Assembly: GCA_005222975.1 (NCBI GenBank)
Contig: NJBI01000017.1
Coordinates: 1 to 55,265 of the forward strand
Length of the DNA stretch: 55,265 bases
Direction: 5' to 3'
From: Promethearchaeota archaeon Loki_b31
GTDB lineage: Archaea > Asgardarchaeota > Lokiarchaeia > Sigyniarchaeales > SOKP01
A model generated the notes under the pieces. It saw only the letters and a list, made by a program, of their open reading frames with translations. It was not told where the DNA came from and made no database searches. This document shows, piece by piece, positions 3,749 through 50,174 of this stretch. Every line of letters starts with the position of its first letter. The first letter of the stretch is position 1. The position numbers and the translations under genes are program-made.

Positions 3749-4360
3749 ATGAAGTCAATGGATTCTAAAGACGCAGAAAACGAAACGGAAAAATTAACAA
3801 AAGTACTTTCTATTGTTCAAAATCTTTACTATAAGAAGAAGGAACAATTAGACGATTTAAAATTAGAAATCTCTGAATTACACACCGTTTTAGATTATTT
3901 AAACTCATTGATTTCAAAGCAATCGTTTTCAAGTGCAGATGAAATTTATTCGAAGCTTTTAGATCGTGAAGAGAAATCGATTGATGATTATTTTAAAAAA
4001 GATATTTCTCAGGAAGATTTTGACGGAACTAAGATTAAAAGAAAAATTTTCTCGAGTCAAAATCAGAATGAAGAAAATTTATTATGTGTGCTTAACCTCT
4101 ACGACTTTAAAAGAGTTGAGATAAAATTTATTGATCCTGAAAAAAGGGAGATACAAGAAACTTCAGAGAATTTTATTAACGTTTTTCTCAAGGGAGCGCT
4201 TATTAAAATAAAAGAAAATAACCCTAATTTGAGCATTAATTACACTTTTTTCAAAAATTCCGATAAAGTTGAATATATTCACATATCTAATTTAAGTTCA
4301 ATTGAAGACTATGATTTGATAACGGACAAAATCCGCGAATTATTAGCGTGTGAAAAATAA
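3749..4360 (+). CDS. Hypothetical protein with N-terminal coiled coil; host gene of cassette copy 1
   Basis: 203-aa ORF; its last 90 nt recur in diverged form at 7591-7680. Confidence 0.75.
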   Translation: MKSMDSKDAENETEKLTKVLSIVQNLYYKKKEQLDDLKLEISELHTVLDYLNSLISKQSFSSADEIYSKLLDREEKSIDDYFKKDISQEDFDGTKIKRKIFSSQNQNEENLLCVLNLYDFKRVEIKFIDPEKREIQETSENFINVFLKGALIKIKENNPNLSINYTFFKNSDKVEYIHISNLSSIEDYDLITDKIRELLACEK

Positions 4361-4466
4361 GCTCTTTAAGAAACGTTGAATTGATAAAGTTTTCATTGCA
4401 AAAGTCTTGTTCTTGCTCTTTGCTGGAAATAAAAATCTAAAAACTCGAACACCTCATCATTTTTTG

Positions 4467-4500
4467 TTTAAATAAAACTGTATTAATTAGGTAGTAAAAG
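4467..4500 (+). promoter_or_regulatory. Conserved cassette leader TTTAAATA-N10-AATTAGGTAGTAAAAG (TATA box plus conserved 16-mer)
   Basis: Same motif with identical spacing upstream of all three cassette copies. Confidence 0.7.
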
Positions 4501-4517
4501 ATTTAAAATAACAAATT

Positions 4518-5129
4518 ATGACGGACTATATTGAAGATCCCTATATTGAATCAGAATATGATTATATTTTTAATGATTGGTATGAAATTGAGGGCGTAAG
4601 AAAAATAAAGGAACTTTCACGCCAACTCCGAACTTTTTTCAATTATAAGGCTGAAGTAATAAGATATCTATTTCGACCCAGTCCGAATCTTGCCGAAAAT
4701 GATACAAACACTAAATTTTTCAGTCGAAAGCAAGAAATTGAATCATTAACTCGTGAATTCATAATCTTTTTAAAAAAGTTTAAGGAAAATGGACAAACAA
4801 TTGAGCAAGGGATTCAATCTCTCTTTTTTGACAATAATAAAACACCATTGAATATACTCTCAGAGATCACTGAGAAATTGTCTATGTTGCTTCACTATTT
4901 TTCAGAGGAAAGCATTTACGATCATCCTAAATTTCTCAAATTTAATGTGATATTAGCACAAAATATATGTTTGGTGAAAAAATGCCTGAATGCACAATTT
5001 AGTGAATTTTTTGAGGAACTTGAAATAAATTACAATAATTTAGAAGGAGAACTTGAACATTTCTTTGAAATAATGTTAAATGAGCAGAAAAAATCGAAAA
5101 AACAACTTGAGGAGAGATTAGCTTCATGA
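4518..5129 (+). CDS. Cassette ORF-A, conserved unknown alpha-helical protein
   Basis: End-to-end homolog of 28712..29326 and 43216..43827 (WYEIEG.RKIKELSRQLRTFFNYK, HP.FLKF, CLVKKCL); stop overlaps ORF-B start (ATGA). Confidence 0.9.
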   Translation: MTDYIEDPYIESEYDYIFNDWYEIEGVRKIKELSRQLRTFFNYKAEVIRYLFRPSPNLAENDTNTKFFSRKQEIESLTREFIIFLKKFKENGQTIEQGIQSLFFDNNKTPLNILSEITEKLSMLLHYFSEESIYDHPKFLKFNVILAQNICLVKKCLNAQFSEFFEELEINYNNLEGELEHFFEIMLNEQKKSKKQLEERLAS

Positions 5130-7546
5130 AGGCATACACCAATGTGTCGCGGAAAGTCGTGGGGGAGGATCGCATTGCTATCTGCCCGCAATTCGGTTGC
5201 GATTATATGAAGCGGGTAAAACCGCTTAAATTTGGATTTCTCGGGTTTGAGAAGTATCCTAAATGCAAGACGCATCACTTACCCTTGGTGTATGTGGATG
5301 AGAGAATTGGAGAATTCGTGGATGGAGCATTGGCGTGCTTGTTTGACAAGGCGGGGCTCCCTCCAAGTGATCTACTGGAATTGGTCGCTTCACACTACCA
5401 CGATGAATTGGATCCATTCGTTCACGGATGGGTATACTGCGTCACGACTGGAAGGGGAGCACCTATCGTGTCTCGCTACTTGGATTCGATTTCGAAAGCG
5501 TACATGAAGAACCTCAATAGAAAGCAAGTCAAGGCGATCATGAAAGATGGGAACAAAAAAGATGTAGACAAATACCAAGCTGTCAAGAAGGGATTGAAAA
5601 AAATCACCGCACAGTACACCCGCCTCCTCAAACACCTCCGAGCACATTCGGAGGTTCTTGTGGATATTAAAAATCTTAAGTCGCTCTCAAGGAAACTTCG
5701 AAATGACTTGAATGAGTGGCAAGAGGGAATCATTCGTGATTATTTAGGGAAAAAATCTCAAGATAAATCTAACAGAATGACGATCGAGGAAGTAAAATAC
5801 TATTATGACCAGATTCTTAATGTGGGCACCTGTCGAAGCTTACTTGGAATGAAGACCGAATTCAAGAAAGTAAAGATAACCGCGTTTGATCGGTTTTCGG
5901 CTTATGTGGAGTTTTTTTCTGAAGGTATTACTGAAAAATATACAAAATCTGATATTAAAGGACTTTATTTAGATATTAAAATAAATCCAATTAAAAAGGA
6001 GTCAATAAAAAAAATGAAAACGAAAGAAAAATTTGAAGGAAATAAAGATCTAAAAACAATTAAAGAATATTTAAGAAATCTTGATTGGAAGAGTTTATCT
6101 AATAATTGGGTTGTATTACTTAGAGAACACCACACTAAACCTTATGAGAAAATCCTACTTGATCCTCATAAAGATCCTTCCAATGAAAATCCTTTATGGA
6201 AACATGAGATTTGGTTGAAGCGAGTATATGCTGATGAAAAATATGATTTTTCTGATAGTCTTATTTCTCGAATTACTGGTATTTCTCGGATTACAGTCAG
6301 AAAATACCGTTTGAAATTTAATATTAGCTATTCCTACTACAACATGACTCAAAAACCAATTCTTAGTAAAGAATTGATTGAGAAAAGGGAGAAGATTCGT
6401 AATTTTAATTGGAAAATAAATACTAATTGGATGATACCTGTCGGGGGACACGGTGATTTTTTAATCCTTAACCCAAGCGAATATTGCAGTCCTGAAAACC
6501 CTTTATACAAGCATAAGGTTTGGTTAAAAAGAGTTTATGAAGATGAAGAGCTTGATTTGAATGGAGTTGAGATTGCTAAAATATGCGGTCTAAAAGATCA
6601 GAAACCTATTAGTTATTGGAGAAAAAGATTAGGGATACATAAAAAAAGAAAAGGTGTTTATATAAATACACAAGGGCAAAAGGTGGTTCTCACTCCAAAT
6701 ACCTATACACACCCTCAGCGTGGTAGAGTTCATAAACGTGCTGAACATAAACTAATCATGGAAAGATATTTAAATAAAAGTCTATCAAGACACCAATTAG
6801 AAACACATCCAGATTTGATTCAGGGATTGTTAGGAGAAGAGGTGTATTTTTATATAAAGAAGAATTGTCATGTCCACCATATCAATTATGTAGGTACAGA
6901 CAATAGAATCGAGAATCTTTGGCTATTTTCTACTAATCGCGCACATGGATTAGTGGTTAATGAGCTACATCAATGCCTTTCAATTTTGATTAAGTTACAT
7001 CAAATTTTTTTTAAGGAGGGTAAATATTTTCTAAATCAAGATTTTGATTGTCGTCGGTTAGAAAGGGATGATATTCGAGGAAACTTAAATTTTGATAGTA
7101 TAATAAGTCATTATCTCTCCCGATTTTATAATAAGAGTAGAAATTCTTTTAGTGTAGCGATGCCTGCATCCTATAAAAATCCCTTTATTTCTCTAAAAAA
7201 AGGAATGGATTATGCTTATATATATGAACATAGGTATATCATCGAACAATATTATAGGACGCTTTTAAGAAAAAATACAAAATTACCAGAGGAACATAAT
7301 GATTATAAAAAAGCTAAAGAATTCATAAATCCTCAAGGATTTTTAAAACCCGATGCTCTCGTGCACCATGTAAATTTCGATTCTCGAGATAATCGGATAT
7401 CGAATTTATATGTGTGTAATATTTCTGAACATCGGCTTTGTCATGGATCAATATACCAATCAGTCGAAAGATTACTTGATATGGGATTGATTTATTTCTG
7501 TAACGGGAAATATTTTTTGGATAACACTTTAACTATTAAAATGTGA
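5126..7546 (+). CDS. Cassette ORF-B1: conserved Zn-finger head + two HTH repeats + tandem HNH_3 homing-endonuclease-like domains
   Basis: CPQFGC..CKTH head; NPL.KH..WLKRVY twice; VHHINYVGTDNRIENL and VHHVNFDSRDNRISNL, each preceded by EH[KR].I[MI]E.Y. Confidence 0.85.
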   Translation: MKAYTNVSRKVVGEDRIAICPQFGCDYMKRVKPLKFGFLGFEKYPKCKTHHLPLVYVDERIGEFVDGALACLFDKAGLPPSDLLELVASHYHDELDPFVHGWVYCVTTGRGAPIVSRYLDSISKAYMKNLNRKQVKAIMKDGNKKDVDKYQAVKKGLKKITAQYTRLLKHLRAHSEVLVDIKNLKSLSRKLRNDLNEWQEGIIRDYLGKKSQDKSNRMTIEEVKYYYDQILNVGTCRSLLGMKTEFKKVKITAFDRFSAYVEFFSEGITEKYTKSDIKGLYLDIKINPIKKESIKKMKTKEKFEGNKDLKTIKEYLRNLDWKSLSNNWVVLLREHHTKPYEKILLDPHKDPSNENPLWKHEIWLKRVYADEKYDFSDSLISRITGISRITVRKYRLKFNISYSYYNMTQKPILSKELIEKREKIRNFNWKINTNWMIPVGGHGDFLILNPSEYCSPENPLYKHKVWLKRVYEDEELDLNGVEIAKICGLKDQKPISYWRKRLGIHKKRKGVYINTQGQKVVLTPNTYTHPQRGRVHKRAEHKLIMERYLNKSLSRHQLETHPDLIQGLLGEEVYFYIKKNCHVHHINYVGTDNRIENLWLFSTNRAHGLVVNELHQCLSILIKLHQIFFKEGKYFLNQDFDCRRLERDDIRGNLNFDSIISHYLSRFYNKSRNSFSVAMPASYKNPFISLKKGMDYAYIYEHRYIIEQYYRTLLRKNTKLPEEHNDYKKAKEFINPQGFLKPDALVHHVNFDSRDNRISNLYVCNISEHRLCHGSIYQSVERLLDMGLIYFCNGKYFLDNTLTIKM

Positions 7547-7590
7547 TTTCTTATTTCTATCATCACATTGGATTAATACTTTAATTAATC

Positions 7591-7680
7591 GAATATATTA
7601 CTATTTCTAATTTAAGCGCTATCGAAGATTACGATTTAATAACCGCATAAATACGAGAATTATTAACTCGTGAGATGTAA
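7591..7680 (+). repeat. Displaced diverged copy of the 3' end of gene 3749..4360
   Basis: Gapless 67/90 nt match to 4271-4360; reads EYITISNLSAIEDYDLITA*IRELLTREM* versus EYIHISNLSSIEDYDLITDKIRELLACEK*. Confidence 0.9.
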
Positions 7681-7860
7681 TCCAACTATAAAATGCGGAT
7701 TAGATAAAGTTTGAATAGTATGTATTATATAAAGATATTATATTGATTCATTAAAAAACAAAGAATTAATTATTAGATTTGATTGATTAATTAAAATACA
7801 AAGAATTAATTATACAGAATTTTATATTATTTTTAATTAAAAATTTGGAGCGTATGAACA

Positions 7861-8676
7861 ATGGCTAAGAAGAAAAAATTTTTGATGATGCCTATAATTC
7901 ATTCAAAGTTTAACGATAAAAATCTAGAGGATACACTCATCAATAAATCGAGAGATCTTTTAACAAAAAAAAAAGGAATCGCTCCTTCATTTATCTTTCT
8001 CTCTGGAAGTTTTTTCGATGTAAAAGGTTTTGTATACACGGGGCTTCGAGCGTGGAAGGGTGCGGTAAAGCCTTCTAGTTCTGATGAGGGCAGAAGACCC
8101 TTATTGGAAGCTACATTTGCTTCTCTTTCAGTTTATCTAAGTTCATTACTTGCCCTGCAAGCAGATTTTTACTTCGCCCATGAAGAGATCAAAGACATAT
8201 TATTAGAAAAGAAAAGGGAAGATCTATGGACTATTGTCTCAGAAAAATTGCCTTTTATTTCGCTCCCTCCAAAAGAAATGTATGGAAGCCAAGTTTCGCC
8301 AATTTCTCCCTACTTTGTAATCGAACAAGATGATGACCTCATATTAGGGGAGATATATCCATCGGCTTATTTAACAAAAGTTATCTCTTCCATTAAGACC
8401 AGATTTTTCGTGTTTTTCCAGTATCAAGGATATTCCGCTTTTGGATTTTTCGATTCTTTACCTAAACACGCTAAGTTTGGTTTTGAGGAAAAAGCGAGAG
8501 AGTTTGAAAAAGAACCTACACCAGAAAACCTACAAAAGTATGCTGTTGATGCTAAAAATTTAAAAGAAGTTCTAATCGCGCTCATCGAAGCGCATAATAA
8601 TGCGTACTTAGGACAGTATTTAATTGAGGATTACGAACTCCTATTAAATAAACTACTAGAATCGGAGGAGCTATAA
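7861..8676 (+). CDS. Hypothetical protein, coupled to the downstream small GTPase
   Basis: 271-aa ORF, 1 nt before 8678. Confidence 0.75.
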   Translation: MAKKKKFLMMPIIHSKFNDKNLEDTLINKSRDLLTKKKGIAPSFIFLSGSFFDVKGFVYTGLRAWKGAVKPSSSDEGRRPLLEATFASLSVYLSSLLALQADFYFAHEEIKDILLEKKREDLWTIVSEKLPFISLPPKEMYGSQVSPISPYFVIEQDDDLILGEIYPSAYLTKVISSIKTRFFVFFQYQGYSAFGFFDSLPKHAKFGFEEKAREFEKEPTPENLQKYAVDAKNLKEVLIALIEAHNNAYLGQYLIEDYELLLNKLLESEEL

Positions 8677-8677
8677 A

Positions 8678-9313
8678 ATGGTGAATATTGGGCTTTTAGG
8701 TGATATCTCTGTCGGAAAAACTAGTATTCTCCGCCTATTCGTAAGATATTTAAAAGTTGGTGACATAGAAAAAGTTAAAGGAGGACAAAAATGTACGGTA
8801 ATAAAAACAGATTTTTCCGGTGAAGCTACGGTTCCAGGTGGAAGTAAAGAAGATTCTCTTAATCAAAAAGAAACTAAAACAATTCATCCAAATAGAATTG
8901 TATTTAGAGAAGATAAATCAGGAAAATCACATACAATCTTCGCACCAGGAGGAGATCGGCGAAGGGCAGTTGTTAAAATGGGAATAATTACTATCTCTCG
9001 TATAGCAACTCAGATTATAGCTGTATTTTCTTTGGATCGTAAACTTGAAAGACAATTTGAATTTTTCAATGATGTTCGATTTTTTCCTGATAAAATCTCT
9101 GTTTGTATTAATAAAATTGATTTACTTAAGGGAGACAGAGATAAAAGTTTAGAAGATATTAAAAGCAAGATTAATAACTTCTTCAATAAAAGAAAAATAT
9201 CGGTTTCTGACTATTTTATAACTTGCGGTGAAACTGTTTCTAATTTTGAAGAGGTTGAGGAATACAATAACCATGTTGCCGAGATGATTTTAGAGATAAC
9301 AACATCTCGTTAA
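8678..9313 (+). CDS. Small GTPase (Ras-superfamily-like) with atypical G3
   Basis: G1 GDISVGKTS, G4 NKID, G5-like TCG; G3 reads FAPGG rather than DxxG. Confidence 0.75.
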   Translation: MVNIGLLGDISVGKTSILRLFVRYLKVGDIEKVKGGQKCTVIKTDFSGEATVPGGSKEDSLNQKETKTIHPNRIVFREDKSGKSHTIFAPGGDRRRAVVKMGIITISRIATQIIAVFSLDRKLERQFEFFNDVRFFPDKISVCINKIDLLKGDRDKSLEDIKSKINNFFNKRKISVSDYFITCGETVSNFEEVEEYNNHVAEMILEITTSR

Positions 9314-15818: not shown

Positions 15819-16017
15819 TTCTTCTAATTCACCTTATCGGTTAATATTTTTTATTAGTTTTTTAATATTCTTAATAAAGAGTTTAAACTCTCATTTTAAA
15901 TTGATTGTATTAGAAGTAGCCAATTAAACTTTTAAATATTGTATTTATAACTTATTAATTTTGGATAAGAATGACCATAACCTTAGGTTTTCATTATACA
16001 AAACATAGGAGGTTAAA

Positions 16018-16409
16018 TTAAACGACATGTAGTGCTTGGTTTAAAATATCTAAATTTTTAACAAATTCTTCCTTAAATAGATGATAATACGTAAATTTTT
16101 GTTTTTTATATCCTTGTATTAATCCGGCTACTACAAGCTTTCTTAAATGATGAGATATTGTCGATTGGGACTTATCTAGTATAGTTTCTAATTCGCATAC
16201 GCATCTATCTTGCTTCCTTAAGGCATTAATTATAATTAAACGCTCCTTAGATGATAATGCTAAAAAAATAATGTTAAATCATCTAGATCTTCATTTTTCA
16301 ATAATTCTCTTCCAAAATCTTGTAGATTCATGAAGTATTGATTCGATTCATTGCATTCCTTACAGGAACATAACATTTTCTTTACTTCTTGTACCCTTTT
16401 TTGTTTCAC
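16018..16409 (-). pseudogene. arsR: Second arsR copy, frameshifted in a homopolymer run (or a sequencing error)
   Basis: GTG MKQKRVQEVKKMLCSCKEC...LTLFF, 1-nt frameshift at the A7 run 16262-16268, then LALSSKERLIIINAL..RCVCELETILDKSQSTISHHLRKL, nearly identical to 24359..24751. Confidence 0.8.
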
Positions 16410-23753: not shown

Positions 23754-24358
23754 TGTTCTTCCCATCAACACTTGAATATTAGAAAATTCTGATGTCTATT
23801 CTTTGCTTTTTTTGATAATTTCAAAGTGTCAATCTTTAATCATTTCTGTTTTGTATCAAATTTTTCCATATTAGAGATTTTTTGAGTATTTTACTTTCAA
23901 CAGGAATATATTTTTTTTCGTAAGAATCTCTATATCGTGGATCTGGGTTATCATATCTGATATGAATTTTCATATCATTTTGATTATCAGCACCAAACTG
24001 TATCCTCAATGGATTGTCATTAAGGTCTAAAAAAAAAAACCCCTATTCCAAAATACGTTAGAAATGACTTTGTTAGTATATTAGCTGTATCTATTTGTGC
24101 TCTATCATAAGATCTATTTCTAAAACTGTAATAAGTGCCTATACATAAAGTTTTTAATTTCAAACCTTTGAAATGACTGGTAGCATATTTGAAGAGTATT
24201 TGATAAAATGCTCTCGCGATTATATTCCCTTGTCGTATCCCTTTAAGATATTTAAGTTCGATACCCATCGGACTTAATACCTGATAATTAGATTTGAAAA
24301 TTATTAAATCAATGCTCATAACCTTAGGCTTTCATTATATAAAACATAGGAGGCTAAA

Positions 24359-24751
24359 TTAATTAACATATAATGCTTGGTTTAAAACATCTAAATTTTT
24401 AGCAAGTTCTTCCTTAAATAGATGGTAATATGTAAATTTTTGTTTTTTATATCCTTGTATTAAACCTGCTACTACAAGCTTTCTTAAATGATGAGATATT
24501 GTCGATTGGGACTTATCTAATATAGTTTCTAATTCGCATACACATCTATCTTGTTCTTTTAAAGCGTTAATAATGATCAACCTTTCTTTTGACGCTAAAG
24601 CTAAAGTGAATTTCTCAATCGCTTCAAATGTTTTATTTTCTTCTAATTCCTTCCCCAATTTTAGCAAATTATTAAAGAAACCATTTGAGTTAGAGCATTC
24701 TTTACAAGCACATAGCATTATCTTAATTTCTGATTCGCGTTTTTCTTTCAT
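24359..24751 (-). CDS. arsR: ArsR/SmtB-family metalloregulator
   Basis: ALA...RL.I, RCVCEL metal site, SQSTISHHLRKL HTH; divergent from acr3. Confidence 0.9.
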   Translation of the reverse strand: MKEKRESEIKIMLCACKECSNSNGFFNNLLKLGKELEENKTFEAIEKFTLALASKERLIIINALKEQDRCVCELETILDKSQSTISHHLRKLVVAGLIQGYKKQKFTYYHLFKEELAKNLDVLNQALYVN

Positions 24752-24929: not shown

Positions 24930-26013
24930 ATGAAATCAGAAGAACCAAAAGTAGAATCAAAAAAAATTAATTATTTTGAAAAACTTCTTCCGTTATGGGT
25001 CGCATTATGTATAATTGCAGGTATTATTCTTTCTCAGCTTATCCCTGAAATAAGCGAAGCTATTAATTCTTTACAAATAGGAGGAATTTCTATTCCCATT
25101 GGAATCTGTTTATTCCTGATGATGTATCCCGCTATGTTGAATCTTCAATTTTCTGAGTTGAAAAAATTAGGTAAAAACCCAAAACCAATTATATTAACGC
25201 TTATCTCTAATTGGGTAGTCGCTCCTTTCATAGGGTTAGCAATGGCAAACATTTTTTTACCTGGATATGAACAACTAATAGTTGCAATTATTCTTCTAAG
25301 TTCAAGCCCATGTACTGCTATGGTCCTAATTTGGGGTTGGATGGCAAGAGGGAATCAAGAACAAAACGTAATTAATACTAGTTTAAATACAATAACTATC
25401 ATATTCGGTTATGTCCCTTTAGTCGCATTATTAACCGGCATTAAAAACATTCCTATAGATATCTTTCTTTTGTTAATTTCTTTGGTGGTTTTCATAGGAA
25501 TACCACTATTATTGGGTATAGTTAGTAAAAAAATTATTATTTCAACCAAAGGAGATGCTTGGTTTAACGATGTCTATAGACCAATTGTAGGAAAAATTTC
25601 GATTGGTGCACTATTAACGACTTTAATTGTTCTTTTTTCACTTAATGGAACCGTCTTGATAAATAATCCCGATCTACTGCTGATAATCTCTATACCTCTT
25701 TTAGTGGGATTTGTAATTGTTGTTGGTTTTAATTTATTAATTACAAAACTCTTTAAGTTGAGATATGAGGAAGCAGTTATTACGGTTATAATAGGATCTT
25801 CAAGTCATTTTGAAATAGCTATTGCTACTGCAATTGCTATGTATGGAATTGGCTCTATTGCTGCATTAGGGACTACCATGGGACTATACGATTCTTAGTT
25901 TTCCTATGAAAGGGTCATTCTGGGAAGTTCCAGTAATGCTGTCAATAGTCTACTTCGGAAGATTTCTAAAGAAAAGAGGTTTTTGGGAGAATTCAGGAGA
26001 TAGGACAGATTAA
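24930..26013 (+). CDS. acr3: Acr3 arsenite efflux permease, join(24930..25887,25919..26013), 350 aa if the 31-nt insert is spliced out
   Basis: LMMYP, NWVVAP, SPCTAMV, SSHFEIAIA motifs; removing the insert gives AALGTTMGL-FWEVPVMLSIVY with the spacing of the Acr3 consensus ATVVGPLIEVPVML. Confidence 0.85.
25888..25918 (+). other. Candidate 31-nt bulge-helix-bulge (BHB) intron in acr3 mRNA
   Basis: Central helix GACU(25882-85)/GGUC(25913-16), bulges AUA(25886-88) and AUU(25917-19), closing pairs G25881-C25920 and C25889-G25912, internal hairpin UUC-U-UAG/CUA-U-GAA; cleavage after the 2nd nt of each bulge restores the frame. Confidence 0.7.
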
Positions 26014-26105: not shown

Positions 26106-28715
26106 TTACAGAAATCTTATTATATCACCATAAGTTTGTCTTAGCTTGTCGATTTGTTTAAGATCTCTCCAATTACAATGGGGAATATTTCTAAGACGAT
26201 AATTATTTATTTTAAATAATTTCCTTACTTGTTGCTCAAACTCGGAAATTATGAATTTTAGATAGTTATCACGTCGTATTGTATGATCAACTATGATATA
26301 AATATCGATAAATCCATTGTTTTTTAGGTTTTGTTTAAAATTATCACTAGATTTTAAATGCTGATAATCATTGACGAGAGATCCATTTCGAGGAGTTCTA
26401 TGCTTGAATCTATCAACATATTCTTCTAAAGATGAATGTTCACGATCCCAATATTCCCCTGCGACACTTAGCACTCCTATCTTTATACTAATATAAGCAA
26501 AAGCGTCAAAATGCATTCGCTTATAACTCCTTAATGTTTTATAATCGCTAGGCACTAAATTATCAACCTTATCAAAAGGAAGAATTTCATATAATGATGT
26601 TGGTTTTTCACCAAAATTTTTATGAAATAATCTTGAAAGTAAATAGCGCATTATCCGTTCGTTTGTTATTTTTCCTCCCGAACATATTTCACAAGATTTT
26701 AGATCTAAATTAAACTCATCAGGTTTAGATTTAAATCTAAAACTTGGATGATATTTACAAGACCATAGATAAACTTCTCTGGATGGCTGTTTTAATTTCT
26801 CAATATAACTCAACGGGGTTTCCAGATTAAAATTATATTTATCACCTCGAGTGATAATTTGTTCACTCGTTAATCTATGACTATCGTGATAACATTCAGC
26901 ACACCAGTTATCATAATCTTTAATGCGCTCCATACTAATATAAAATTCCCCGTGTCTGTTACAAATAAATGGGAATAATATTTCAGAGACTTTTTGCTGT
27001 TTATCACGAGATTTTTTTAACTCCTGATTTATTCGAGCTATAAATTCAGTTTCAGTAAATTTAAATCTTGCATTCCTCAACTCCGCTTCTCTAACAAAAT
27101 CCTGATATGAATGGGACTTTTTAATTCTTGAACATAGAGGGCATACAGCGCGATATAAATGTTTGTAAACTACACTAAATTTTTCATGGTTGGAACACTT
27201 ACAAGAAAGTTCAAATGATAAGTTTTCTATAAGAGTCCCTGTTAGCACAGATTCTAAATAATCAAATACATTCGTCTCCATATTAAGTCCTAAAGAATTG
27301 ATTTTACTACAATAGGAATTCCATTTCTTCACTAAGCTAAAAACACGTTTTTCAGCACATATTAATTTGTAATCGAGTATTAAATTAAAAAAAACAATAT
27401 AATTACTTGAAAACTCTTGTTTTAGATTAAAAAACCAATTATCTAAAATATTTTCATCTATTAAAGAGTTAGGTCTTTTATATTTATTAGACTTTAAAGT
27501 AGCGAAAGCTAAAACTTCAGAACCATTAGATGTACCATAAAGCATCTCGGCAATTCTATTATCTGGCAGAACTCCTTGACATGATTTAATTTGTTTTACT
27601 AGATTCTCAAGAAAACCCTTTGATATGAATTTGGTATTCTTTGCATTTGAAAAATGAATCTCAATAAATTCTTTATAATGTTCTAGAGCTATCATATCGA
27701 TTTTTTTAATTTCTCTTGGTTGCCCTTCTCTTTGTTTCATGGAATTTACGAACTCATTTTTTAATTCATTATTGAAAGATTCCCTGTATTCTTCATTAAT
27801 TTTAAGTGTTTCAAAGTTTTCAGATTTTTCGTCCATGTCTTTCTGATAATTGTTATTCATTCTCAGTAAGTTAAAAACATCAGATTTAGTAAATTTTGAA
27901 GTTAAATCTTCCTTAAAGAATTCATGATATGCGGAAAACCTGTCGAAGGCAGATACCTTTGCTTTCTTATTTCCTTTAGTTTCAGGATTTAATCCGAGAA
28001 GACAGCGACACGTACCAATGTTTAGGATTTGATCATAACTATGCTTCATCTCTTTTAACCCCATTTCACGATTGTTTTCTGACATAATTAATAACTCGTT
28101 ACTCTTCAACATGTTCTTTTGCCATTCATTCAAATATTTTTGAAGATGTTTTGAAAGTGGTTTAAGATTTTCAGGTTTAGAAAGGATTTCGGAATGAGCT
28201 CTCAGATGCTTGAGAATTCTTGTATATTGGATAGTTATTTCATCCATTCCATCCTTAATTGCTTTATTCACGAGATTTGATTTAGAATTATCTCCTTTTT
28301 TTATTGCTTTAATTTGTTTCTTGGTTAATTGCTTGAGATAAGCATTAGAAATTGTATCCATATAACGTGAAACTATGGGTACTCCCCTTCCAACTGTTAT
28401 GCAATATACCCATCCTTCTACAAATGAGGTCATTTCATCAAGGAATCTTGATTTCACGCTTTCAATTAATTCACGGGGAGGTAGTCCAGCTTTATCAAAC
28501 AAGCATGATAATGCAGCATCCACGAAATCACCGATCCTTTGATCGACATAAACTAAAGGAATGTGATGTTTTTTGCATTTAGGATACTTCCCAAAACCAA
28601 AAAATCTCAATTTAAGAGGTTTAACTCTTGTCATAAACTCACACCCGAAGTTTGGGCAGATTGCTATGCGGTCTTCTCCCACGGTTTTTCGTGACACGTT
28701 GGTGTATGCTTTCAT
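26106..28715 (-). CDS. Cassette ORF-B2: conserved head + three Zn-ribbon repeats + C-terminal PD-(D/E)XK/Vsr-like endonuclease
   Basis: Head homologous to B1/B3; CSNH..CPLC, CNRH..CAEC, CKYH..CEIC; ERIMRYLL...HFDAF...AGEYWDREH...D..KQ. Confidence 0.8.
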   Translation of the reverse strand: MKAYTNVSRKTVGEDRIAICPNFGCEFMTRVKPLKLRFFGFGKYPKCKKHHIPLVYVDQRIGDFVDAALSCLFDKAGLPPRELIESVKSRFLDEMTSFVEGWVYCITVGRGVPIVSRYMDTISNAYLKQLTKKQIKAIKKGDNSKSNLVNKAIKDGMDEITIQYTRILKHLRAHSEILSKPENLKPLSKHLQKYLNEWQKNMLKSNELLIMSENNREMGLKEMKHSYDQILNIGTCRCLLGLNPETKGNKKAKVSAFDRFSAYHEFFKEDLTSKFTKSDVFNLLRMNNNYQKDMDEKSENFETLKINEEYRESFNNELKNEFVNSMKQREGQPREIKKIDMIALEHYKEFIEIHFSNAKNTKFISKGFLENLVKQIKSCQGVLPDNRIAEMLYGTSNGSEVLAFATLKSNKYKRPNSLIDENILDNWFFNLKQEFSSNYIVFFNLILDYKLICAEKRVFSLVKKWNSYCSKINSLGLNMETNVFDYLESVLTGTLIENLSFELSCKCSNHEKFSVVYKHLYRAVCPLCSRIKKSHSYQDFVREAELRNARFKFTETEFIARINQELKKSRDKQQKVSEILFPFICNRHGEFYISMERIKDYDNWCAECYHDSHRLTSEQIITRGDKYNFNLETPLSYIEKLKQPSREVYLWSCKYHPSFRFKSKPDEFNLDLKSCEICSGGKITNERIMRYLLSRLFHKNFGEKPTSLYEILPFDKVDNLVPSDYKTLRSYKRMHFDAFAYISIKIGVLSVAGEYWDREHSSLEEYVDRFKHRTPRNGSLVNDYQHLKSSDNFKQNLKNNGFIDIYIIVDHTIRRDNYLKFIISEFEQQVRKLFKINNYRLRNIPHCNWRDLKQIDKLRQTYGDIIRFL

Positions 28716-29326
28716 GTGGTTAATCGCTCCTCGAGTTGTTTTATTGATTTTTTAATCTTATCTCTTGGCGTTGGTTCTAATAGGTTATCCAGCTCTCCTT
28801 CTAAACCATGATAGTTTATTTCAAGTTCTTTATAAAATTCGCGGAATTTTGCATATAGGCATTTTTTCACTAAACAAATGTTTTTTGCTAGCACAACAAC
28901 GAATTTAAGGAATCTTGGATGATCATGAATATTCACCTCTGAAAAAATATGAATTAAAATGGACAGTTTCTCCGTTATGGCTGATAGTTTATCAATTTGT
29001 GTTTTGTTATTTTCATAATAAAGAGATTGAATCCCCTCCTCAAGTGAATGTCCTTGTTTCTTAATTTTTTTTAACAAGGTTATAAATTCATGAGATAATG
29101 ATTCAACCTTTTGTTTTCGGGTAAGAAATTTTGTGGTTGATTTATTATCAAGTGAAATCAAGTTAGAACGAAATCGATATCTTATAACTTCAGTCTTGTA
29201 GTTAAAAAAAGTTCGGAGCTGGCGTGAAAGTTCTTTAATTTTTCTTGCGCCCTCAATTTCATACCAATCATTAAAAATTTCATCATATTCTGTTCCAAAA
29301 TCAGAATCGTCAATATAATCTGTCAT
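28712..29326 (-). CDS. Cassette ORF-A, copy 2
   Basis: Homolog of 4518..5129; ATGA overlap with ORF-B2. Confidence 0.9.
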   Translation of the reverse strand: MTDYIDDSDFGTEYDEIFNDWYEIEGARKIKELSRQLRTFFNYKTEVIRYRFRSNLISLDNKSTTKFLTRKQKVESLSHEFITLLKKIKKQGHSLEEGIQSLYYENNKTQIDKLSAITEKLSILIHIFSEVNIHDHPRFLKFVVVLAKNICLVKKCLYAKFREFYKELEINYHGLEGELDNLLEPTPRDKIKKSIKQLEERLTT

Positions 29327-49810: not shown

Positions 49811-50152
49811 ATGTTCTTGAATATTATTATTAGGTTTACTACAGAGAAAGACATACCTCAGGTTTTAAGGATAGAAAACGATAATTTTGCAGAACCATGG
49901 ACTAAAGAAATGTTTAATATTATGTTAAGAAAGGAATTTCTTCAAAATGTTGAAGAGTCACATAATTTTTATGTTTGTGAAAATAACAGTAAAATTATAG
50001 GGTACATCATCTGGGAAAATGAATATTTCTTTAATAAAGACGAGGGATTCTTGTATTATATTGGGTATGTTATGAACTTTGCAGTAGTCCAAGAAGAGAG
50101 AAGTAAAATAATTATAGACTTTTATGATAAAATAAGAGAAGAAATAATGTAG
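49811..50152 (+). pseudogene. RimI-like GNAT acetyltransferase truncated after motif A start and fused to an HD-gene 3' end
   Basis: IR..T.KDI..V..IE...F.EPW, KIIGY, YVMNFAV, then EERSKIIIDFYDKIREEIM from the repeat. Confidence 0.7.
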
Positions 50153-50174
50153 ATTTACTTGAGTTTCAATATCA
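50092..50174 (+). repeat. 83-bp direct repeat, right copy
   Basis: 78/83 identical to 47321-47403; spans the stops of both convergent genes. Confidence 0.9.

Follow-up and report, generated by a model that had tools for sequence, protein, structure and literature searches.

Introduction

Homing without an intron or an intein (WHO-type homing) has been described from yeasts (PMC7282813), with similar cases in fungal mitochondria (PMC4019555). In the WHO elements of Torulaspora and Lachancea yeasts, an endonuclease gene lies directly behind an intact host gene and a diverged 3' fragment, in which stops are possible, lies beyond it, and copies of WHO10 bear fragments of earlier host sites (PMC7282813; bioRxiv 10.64898/2026.08.13.744650). 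A right end joined without trimming strands the end of the recipient gene in these elements (PMC7282813). Endonuclease open reading frames (ORFs) with alternative C-termini are known from fungal mitochondria (Allomyces macrogynus atp6, Ophiostoma rps3, and Phlebia atp6 and cox2; PMC4019555), and MobE of phage T4 is encoded by one gene, with its HNH domain at the N-terminus (PMC2790892). Here we analyze a two-gene cassette in a 55,265-nucleotide (nt) stretch of DNA, called the window throughout, from Promethearchaeota archaeon Loki_b31 (contig NJBI01000017.1 of assembly GCA_005222975.1; Lokiarchaeia). As in the WHO elements, an intact host gene is followed immediately by a nuclease gene, and a 3' fragment of the host gene lies on the far side; a literature search for such cassettes in Asgard archaea turned up no paper. 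We consider it probable that positions 4393-7590 constitute a free-standing homing cassette, that an event in another clade of the genus (X1) stranded a gene end behind it, and that the cassette entered the present clade (Y) with this piece attached.

Results

The window is contig C46 of a 3.5-Mb metagenome-assembled genome (MAG), labeled G000. The reference set comprised 42 genomes of the genus, and clades were drawn from rpoA': clade Y (G000, G017, G050, G021, and G005; 94-97% identical), clade X1 (G047, G051, G008, G004, G011, G056, and G002; 80-81% identical), and clade X2 (81-83% identical). The host gene, present in 37 of the 42 genomes, belongs to no family in Pfam or NCBIfam. The features of the locus are as follows.

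3749..4360, forward strand: host gene, 203 amino acids (aa), vertically inherited over its full length
4271..4392, forward strand: upstream copy, the gene's own last 30 codons and 32 nt of flank, up to the left junction GATAAAGTTT (4383-4392)
4393..4517, forward strand: left arm, its 3' part common to other cassette copies and the whole arm common to G050, L158, and L159
4518..5129, forward strand: gene A, 203 aa, all-helical, overlapping the start of gene B and predicted to bind the B head
5126..5980, forward strand: conserved head of gene B, ~285 aa, with a Cys/His cluster (C20, C25, C47, H50) and a helical domain
5981..7546, forward strand: tail of gene B, linked to the locus, with HNH_3 motifs at two places, beginning at aa 584 and aa 747
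7547..7590, forward strand: right arm, whose last bases, AATC (7587-7590), are a microhomology of 3-4 nt to the donor-clade gene
7587..7773, forward strand: foreign tract from an empty X1 allele, comprising its last 30 codons (7591-7680), the stop codon, and intergenic sequence that spans the unoccupied insertion site
7591..7680, forward strand: downstream copy, with four private changes relative to the X1 alleles, at 7618, 7648 (the stop), 7666, and 7674
7737..7813, forward strand: tandem duplication of 37 nt at a spacing of 40 nt, marking an out-of-register return from foreign to resident DNA
7861..8676, forward strand: downstream neighbor gene, 271 aa, of clade Y type (resident), adjoining the host gene directly in empty alleles

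An initial annotation of this DNA had described an ungapped repeat between 4271-4360 and 7591-7680, and realignment reproduced it: 67 of 90 nt match, 17 codons differ, and codon 20 of the downstream copy is a TAA (7648-7650). The differences are mostly synonymous or conservative, in line with the initial annotation, which had called many of them so (proportion of synonymous differences, pS, 0.84 and thus saturated; of nonsynonymous differences, pN, 0.12). The likeness spans 122 nt at 71% (4271-4392 versus 7591-7712; blastn E=9e-18 within 11 kb), with both copies terminating in GATAAAGTTT, which the foreign tract holds at 7703-7712; no other ungapped alignment of the 90-mer in the 3.5-Mb genome exceeds 50/90. 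Because the same layout is found in independent assemblies, each time on one contig (G017, L031; and JABUBN010000286.1, L158), it is not an assembly chimera of this MAG.

The initial annotation took the downstream copy for the displaced resident end and predicted that cassette-free orthologs would continue into 7591-7680. The reverse was found. G021, which is cassette-free at this site and has the host gene and the 271-aa gene adjacent, carries the upstream version (89/90 nt; 125/126 over 4267-4392 with the flank). The 5' part of the host gene and its working 3' end both track the species tree, the upstream end grouping with clade Y, and the 12 kb downstream of the site are 93-95% identical to Y and 72-76% to X. 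The downstream copy matches the working ends of X1 genes at 82-84 of 90 nt, and 7587-7749 matches six X1 genomes at 148-150 of 163 nt (~92%), although the X1 host gene overall is only ~75% identical to that of G000. On the strength of G021, the species-tree placement, the Y-like flank, and the X1 identity of the tract, the upstream end appears to be resident and the downstream end foreign, from clade X1. The repeat is hence no ordinary target-site duplication, since its copies derive from different clades, and the two ends are alleles of different lineages (Y-type upstream, X1-type downstream); in both respects the initial annotation was right.

The downstream copy shows neutral-looking decay; with the upstream version in G021, this completes the pair of observations that the initial annotation had named as refuting its reading. 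Three of its four private changes relative to all X1 alleles are nonsynonymous, the stop included, and against G047 pN is 0.060 and pS 0.057, a pattern that, in these small numbers, fits neutral decay. The duplicate at this locus is probably a passive relic. The ratio of nonsynonymous to synonymous change (dN/dS) between the two ends, which the initial annotation had put forward as a check, was uninformative, as pS is saturated and an equally low ratio separates working Y and X1 genes.

The site is occupied in G000, L158, G017, G049, and G050 (all clade Y or very near), in L159, which has an X1-type host, and in the distant G041; apparently the same site is occupied in L160, judged from its last 20 bases only. 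It is empty in G021 and most other genomes. As no fragment accompanies the cassettes of G041 and L159, occupying the site does not depend on one. The L159 cassette has the left arm of G000 and is 91% identical to it in A and 93% in the B head, as compared to ~80% for rpoA' between the clades; cassettes have therefore been transferred between clades. In L159, the first ~360 nt of the downstream gene are not X1-like and the rest is mostly 90-100% X1, as co-conversion of the flank might produce, although such mosaicism could arise in other ways.

The left junction lies at GATAAAGTTT in G000, G050, L159, and G041, with resident DNA to its left; the G049 contig breaks exactly at GATAAAGTTT, and in G017 the junction lies further right. 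(A ~60-nt piece of the left arm was considered as a fossil of another site and rejected; within the genus it matches G050 only.) On the right, G041 and L159 show no duplication, L160 joins just past the stop, and in G000, G017, G049, and G050 the arm is joined via AATC to the X1 gene at a point 94 nt short of that gene's end. The return to Y DNA is out of register at the tandem repeat (7737-7813), or, in G049, at the resident stop codon. No fixed identical core is present at both junctions, as the right junction differs among G000, G049, G041, L159, and L160. The tract must come from an empty X1 allele because it runs across the unoccupied insertion site. The fragment of G050 is intact and equals the working gene end of G047 at 90/90, and that of G000 and G017 carries two states of other X1 alleles; since the fragments match different X1 alleles yet share their junctions, the fragment seems to have been replaced at least once by fresh X1 DNA. 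The heads have also been swapped between loci, as the G017 head at this site is only 67% identical to that of G000 and its tail 89%.

Gene B (5126-7546) encodes 806 aa and contributes the sole Pfam match in the stretch formed by the host gene, A, B, and the 271-aa gene: HNH_3, in two stretches (35.3 bits against a cut-off of 24.8). B is intergenic, outside any intron or intein, and both occupied and empty alleles exist among relatives, which bears out the likeness to intronless homing drawn in the initial annotation. Both HNH motifs are intact in six of six same-site cassettes examined, and purifying selection acts on the tail (dN/dS 0.24-0.40). The tail has no sequence match in PDB, an NCBIfam search gave no match, and the exact B protein has no record in the contig index. 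The predicted folds of A and the B head are helical (predicted local distance difference test, pLDDT, 83 and 81) and had no significant structural match in Foldseek, VIA-align, or atlas fold searches, the best Z scores (6.2 and 8.5) being to unrelated helical bundles; an IS91 row was not accepted (template modeling score 0.29), ESM Atlas feature searches gave no match for either, and neither matched an integrase, transposase, or HUH protein in Pfam, NCBIfam, or the fold search. A complex of A and the B head was predicted with a score of 0.79 (best of three controls, 0.01). Of solved complexes, 58 of 80 passed the mark set for this score, as did 2 of 110 mismatched pairs. Between runs, the agreement in contacts is at least 75%, partner pLDDT is at least 78, and the residues conserved in the A and B alignments both fall in the predicted interface; the models thus support binding between A and the B head.

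A headless, free-standing HNH gene of 797 aa, a relative of the B tail with an acidic N-terminus, lies 1.9 kb past the G017 cassette (L031:9172-11565); it has a homolog at the same place in L158 (L158:7526-8956) and is absent from G000.

G000 holds eight A-B cassettes. The B head is patchily distributed: 20 of the 42 genus genomes have it, in up to nine copies, and among 400 genomes from the whole phylum it is present in 31, almost all of which belong to a single family. It forms 103 clusters in the 50% library. Its tails are exchangeable: among 70 family members, LAGLIDADG_3 was found in 10, HNH_3 in 6, and GIY-YIG in 6, and some of the others look, by eye, PD-(D/E)XK-like. With some exceptions, tail type mostly tracks the insertion locus, as at the fucose-isomerase, SBF, and HD genes. 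At ~7 host loci the flank is duplicated in diverged form, and many cassettes have no such duplication. Two further cassettes lie in the window.

42470..47381, forward strand: cassette at an HD-domain gene, of opposite polarity, with a foreign 3' end in the working gene and the resident end stranded at ~47208-47381
26106..29326, reverse strand: cassette copy 2, neighbored by genes for an SBF-family transporter and ArsR; its tail differs and 85 nt of flank are duplicated

At the HD gene (42470-43069), G050 and G049 are cassette-free; in 50-nt bins, their identity to G000 is 86-100% across the first 400 nt and 64-78% across the final 150. The stranded copy is 92% identical to the G050 sequence, and the identity switch falls at the start of the fragment. 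The stranded copy of an MFS gene on contig C72 matches the working ends of Y relatives at 93-96%, and the working end in G000 is 93% identical to that of the X2 genome G043. The initial annotation had proposed that the element arrives with another allele's 3' end, repairs the gene with it, and pushes the resident end downstream. That idea failed at 3749..4360, where the polarity is reversed, but these identities show it at the HD and MFS loci of G000, and a swap of this kind probably also made the present fragment, in an earlier host. For the SBF/ArsR locus, no empty clade-Y allele was found from which to read the polarity.

Discussion

We propose that the B tail is a site-specific HNH nuclease and that A and the B head form a complex, which, as a guess, might restrain it. 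The cassette would spread by cutting empty alleles of its locus and being copied in by repair, with the left end repaired by homology, always to GATAAAGTTT or slightly beyond, and the right end often joined by microhomology at a variable point, so that part of the recipient would be stranded behind the cassette. One such event in an empty X1 chromosome would have stranded the last 30 codons of X1 and intergenic DNA, in the manner of the WHO elements; the cassette would then have entered clade Y, in G000, with the X1 piece, behind an intact resident gene. The piece would now be decaying neutrally, apparently after having been replaced once by another X1 allele.

Several observations weigh against this proposal. 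In an approximately unbiased (AU) test on 75 nt, a grouping of the fragments with Y ends was not rejected (p=0.245; low power), so the assignment of the fragment rests on the identities. G021 is the only cassette-free Y genome known and could be an excision product, the two halves of the G049 locus are on different contigs, and the expected intermediate, an X1 chromosome with both cassette and fragment, was not found. Two candidate cut targets were rejected: at -94, L159 has X1-type sequence beside an intact B, and across GATAAAGTTT, fragment-bearing alleles retain an unbroken insertion site. As each obvious target is present in some occupied allele, none can be named.

A round trip between the clades would account for the purely Y-type left side up to the junction: a Y cassette would have entered an empty X1 allele along with a Y end, displacing the X1 end by just the mechanism of the initial annotation, and returned to Y by way of the 126-nt Y-type left arm. 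Such a history is in keeping with the WHO model (PMC7282813) and with what the HD and MFS loci show, and the two X1 alleles among the fragments already demand repeated exchange between X1 and Y. We nevertheless think it unlikely, as it needs two clade crossings, no X1 gene with a Y-type end turned up in a set of seven X1-type ends, and the X1-type host L159 retains its X1 end.

The constancy of the left junction at one motif in G000, G050, L159, and G041, with resident DNA to the left and right junctions that vary, could also reflect integration at a fixed point, GATAAAGTTT, through staggered nicks or an imprecisely excised circle. Such integration would yield long, variable duplications (~27, 40, and 126 nt), A and the B head would be the recombinase, and the fragment would be an old X1 3' flank; the right flank of G049 indeed has the G050 left-flank allele, as a single crossover with a circle would give. 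Integrase-driven elements such as e14 in icd of Escherichia coli restore the 3' end of their target gene and leave a diverged copy of that end on the far side. Unlike these, the present cassette has no recombinase match, no fixed att core, and variable junctions. The left junction of G017 lies further right, neither A nor the B head resembles an integrase, transposase, or HUH protein in the searches above, and the foreign upstream ends at the HD and MFS loci start where the stranded fragment starts, which fits break repair; we regard fixed-point integration as quite improbable.

Were 7591-7680 nonetheless this lineage's own displaced end and 4271-4360 an imported resistant allele, G021 would have lost its cassette and kept the imported end, and swaps do occur at the sister loci. 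The upstream end, however, sits where the species tree places clade Y, and the downstream copy, at 92% identity to a clade whose gene as a whole reaches 75%, is too close for vertical descent, making this very improbable. A strain-chimeric assembly or chance likeness can be set aside as negligible, for the contamination of the MAG is 6% but the structure stands on single contigs of G017 and JABUBN010000286.1, the same right half is found in G049 and G050, and the background is 50/90.

Set against the described systems, the stranding of an X1 end followed by entry into clade Y would be a variant of a familiar theme. The HD and MFS cassettes of G000 show the full WHO anatomy. Unlike the WHO elements, which target FBA1 and encode an intein-like LAGLIDADG protein with a C-terminal zinc finger, this cassette resides in an archaeal chromosome and has two genes, its B protein has HNH_3 only, and the group as a whole has many host genes and several nuclease families; moreover, there is no imported working 3' end at this locus, the working end being resident and the fragment foreign. 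The free-standing homing endonucleases of T-even phages (MobE, Seg) are similar in that an intergenic HNH gene lies by a conserved gene and is patchy among relatives (PMC2790892), as are the fragment-free cassettes of G041 and L159; in contrast to MobE, the HNH motifs here lie at the C-terminus, following a conserved head; there is also a partner protein, and host gene ends are duplicated. In fungal mitochondria, a short duplicated gene end flanks the endonuclease ORF and one copy is foreign (PMC4019555), but the setting is an organelle, the ORF is single and of the LAGLIDADG or GIY-YIG type, and in A. macrogynus the working copy is the foreign one. By analogy, the cassette would work like all three and belong to none.

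The downstream copy of such duplications thus cannot be assumed to be the resident one without empty alleles. The family shows probable WHO-type homing at several unrelated genes, with both polarities within one genome, and is a record of recent DNA exchange among uncultured Lokiarchaeia 20% apart at rpoA'. A and the B head form a compact family without a known fold, and natural candidate sensitive and resistant alleles make a cleavage assay straightforward. More tentatively, and with somewhat less than even confidence, these cassettes may be a class of gene drives in archaea. An A-B heterodimer whose fold is undescribed would serve interchangeable homing nucleases (HNH, LAGLIDADG, GIY-YIG) as a shared platform for control or delivery; the drives would cross between species of ~80% identity and rewrite host gene 3' ends, with the stranded ends as landing pads refreshed by foreign DNA.

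Other observations

B is split by a stop or frameshift, past the head or inside the tail, in L067 (G021:C160), L055, and L047, as expected of decaying homing genes. On G000:C87, the cassette's own B nuclease tail is repeated in decayed form (414 nt, 64%) ~1275-864 nt before the start of B and to the left of A, probably as a remnant of an earlier cassette at the same site. A 709-aa gene without a Pfam match accompanies the cassette on G000:C72 (L153:1583-3709) and in L037; the C72 cassette and this gene share 87% DNA identity over 5.2 kb with G004:C94, where the right-hand neighbors differ, and the gene is possibly cargo and the arrangement a relocation. Two records titled Deferrimicrobium and Nanopelagicaceae (L213, L253) contain the B head; the bacterial titles are probably wrong, the coordinates of L253 being those of the archaeal G011:C133.

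Judged by the duplicated end in G017, the SBF transporter (24930-25898) appears to stop short, and two copies of the ArsR region, 88% identical, lie 8.3 kb apart (15970-16264 and 24311-24605). At the HD gene, a third copy of the gene end (47321-47403 and 50092-50174; 94% to the second) closes a 113-aa acetyltransferase-like ORF (49811-50152), which together with a 692-aa membrane gene seems to make up another insert, nested at this gene end; the insert is absent from G021. The HD gene of G005 (L120, G005:C47) is chimeric and cassette-free, with ~13 codons of the imported type followed by the resident end, possibly through excision or a short conversion.

The 5' part of the 271-aa gene (7861-8100) is a mosaic across clade-Y genomes, being 95-100% identical to G017 and G021 in its first 60 nt and 75-88% in nt 60-240, which suggests repeated gene conversion near the cassette. 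Coupled to this gene is a small GTPase-like gene (8678-9313) with an atypical G3 motif (FAPGG).

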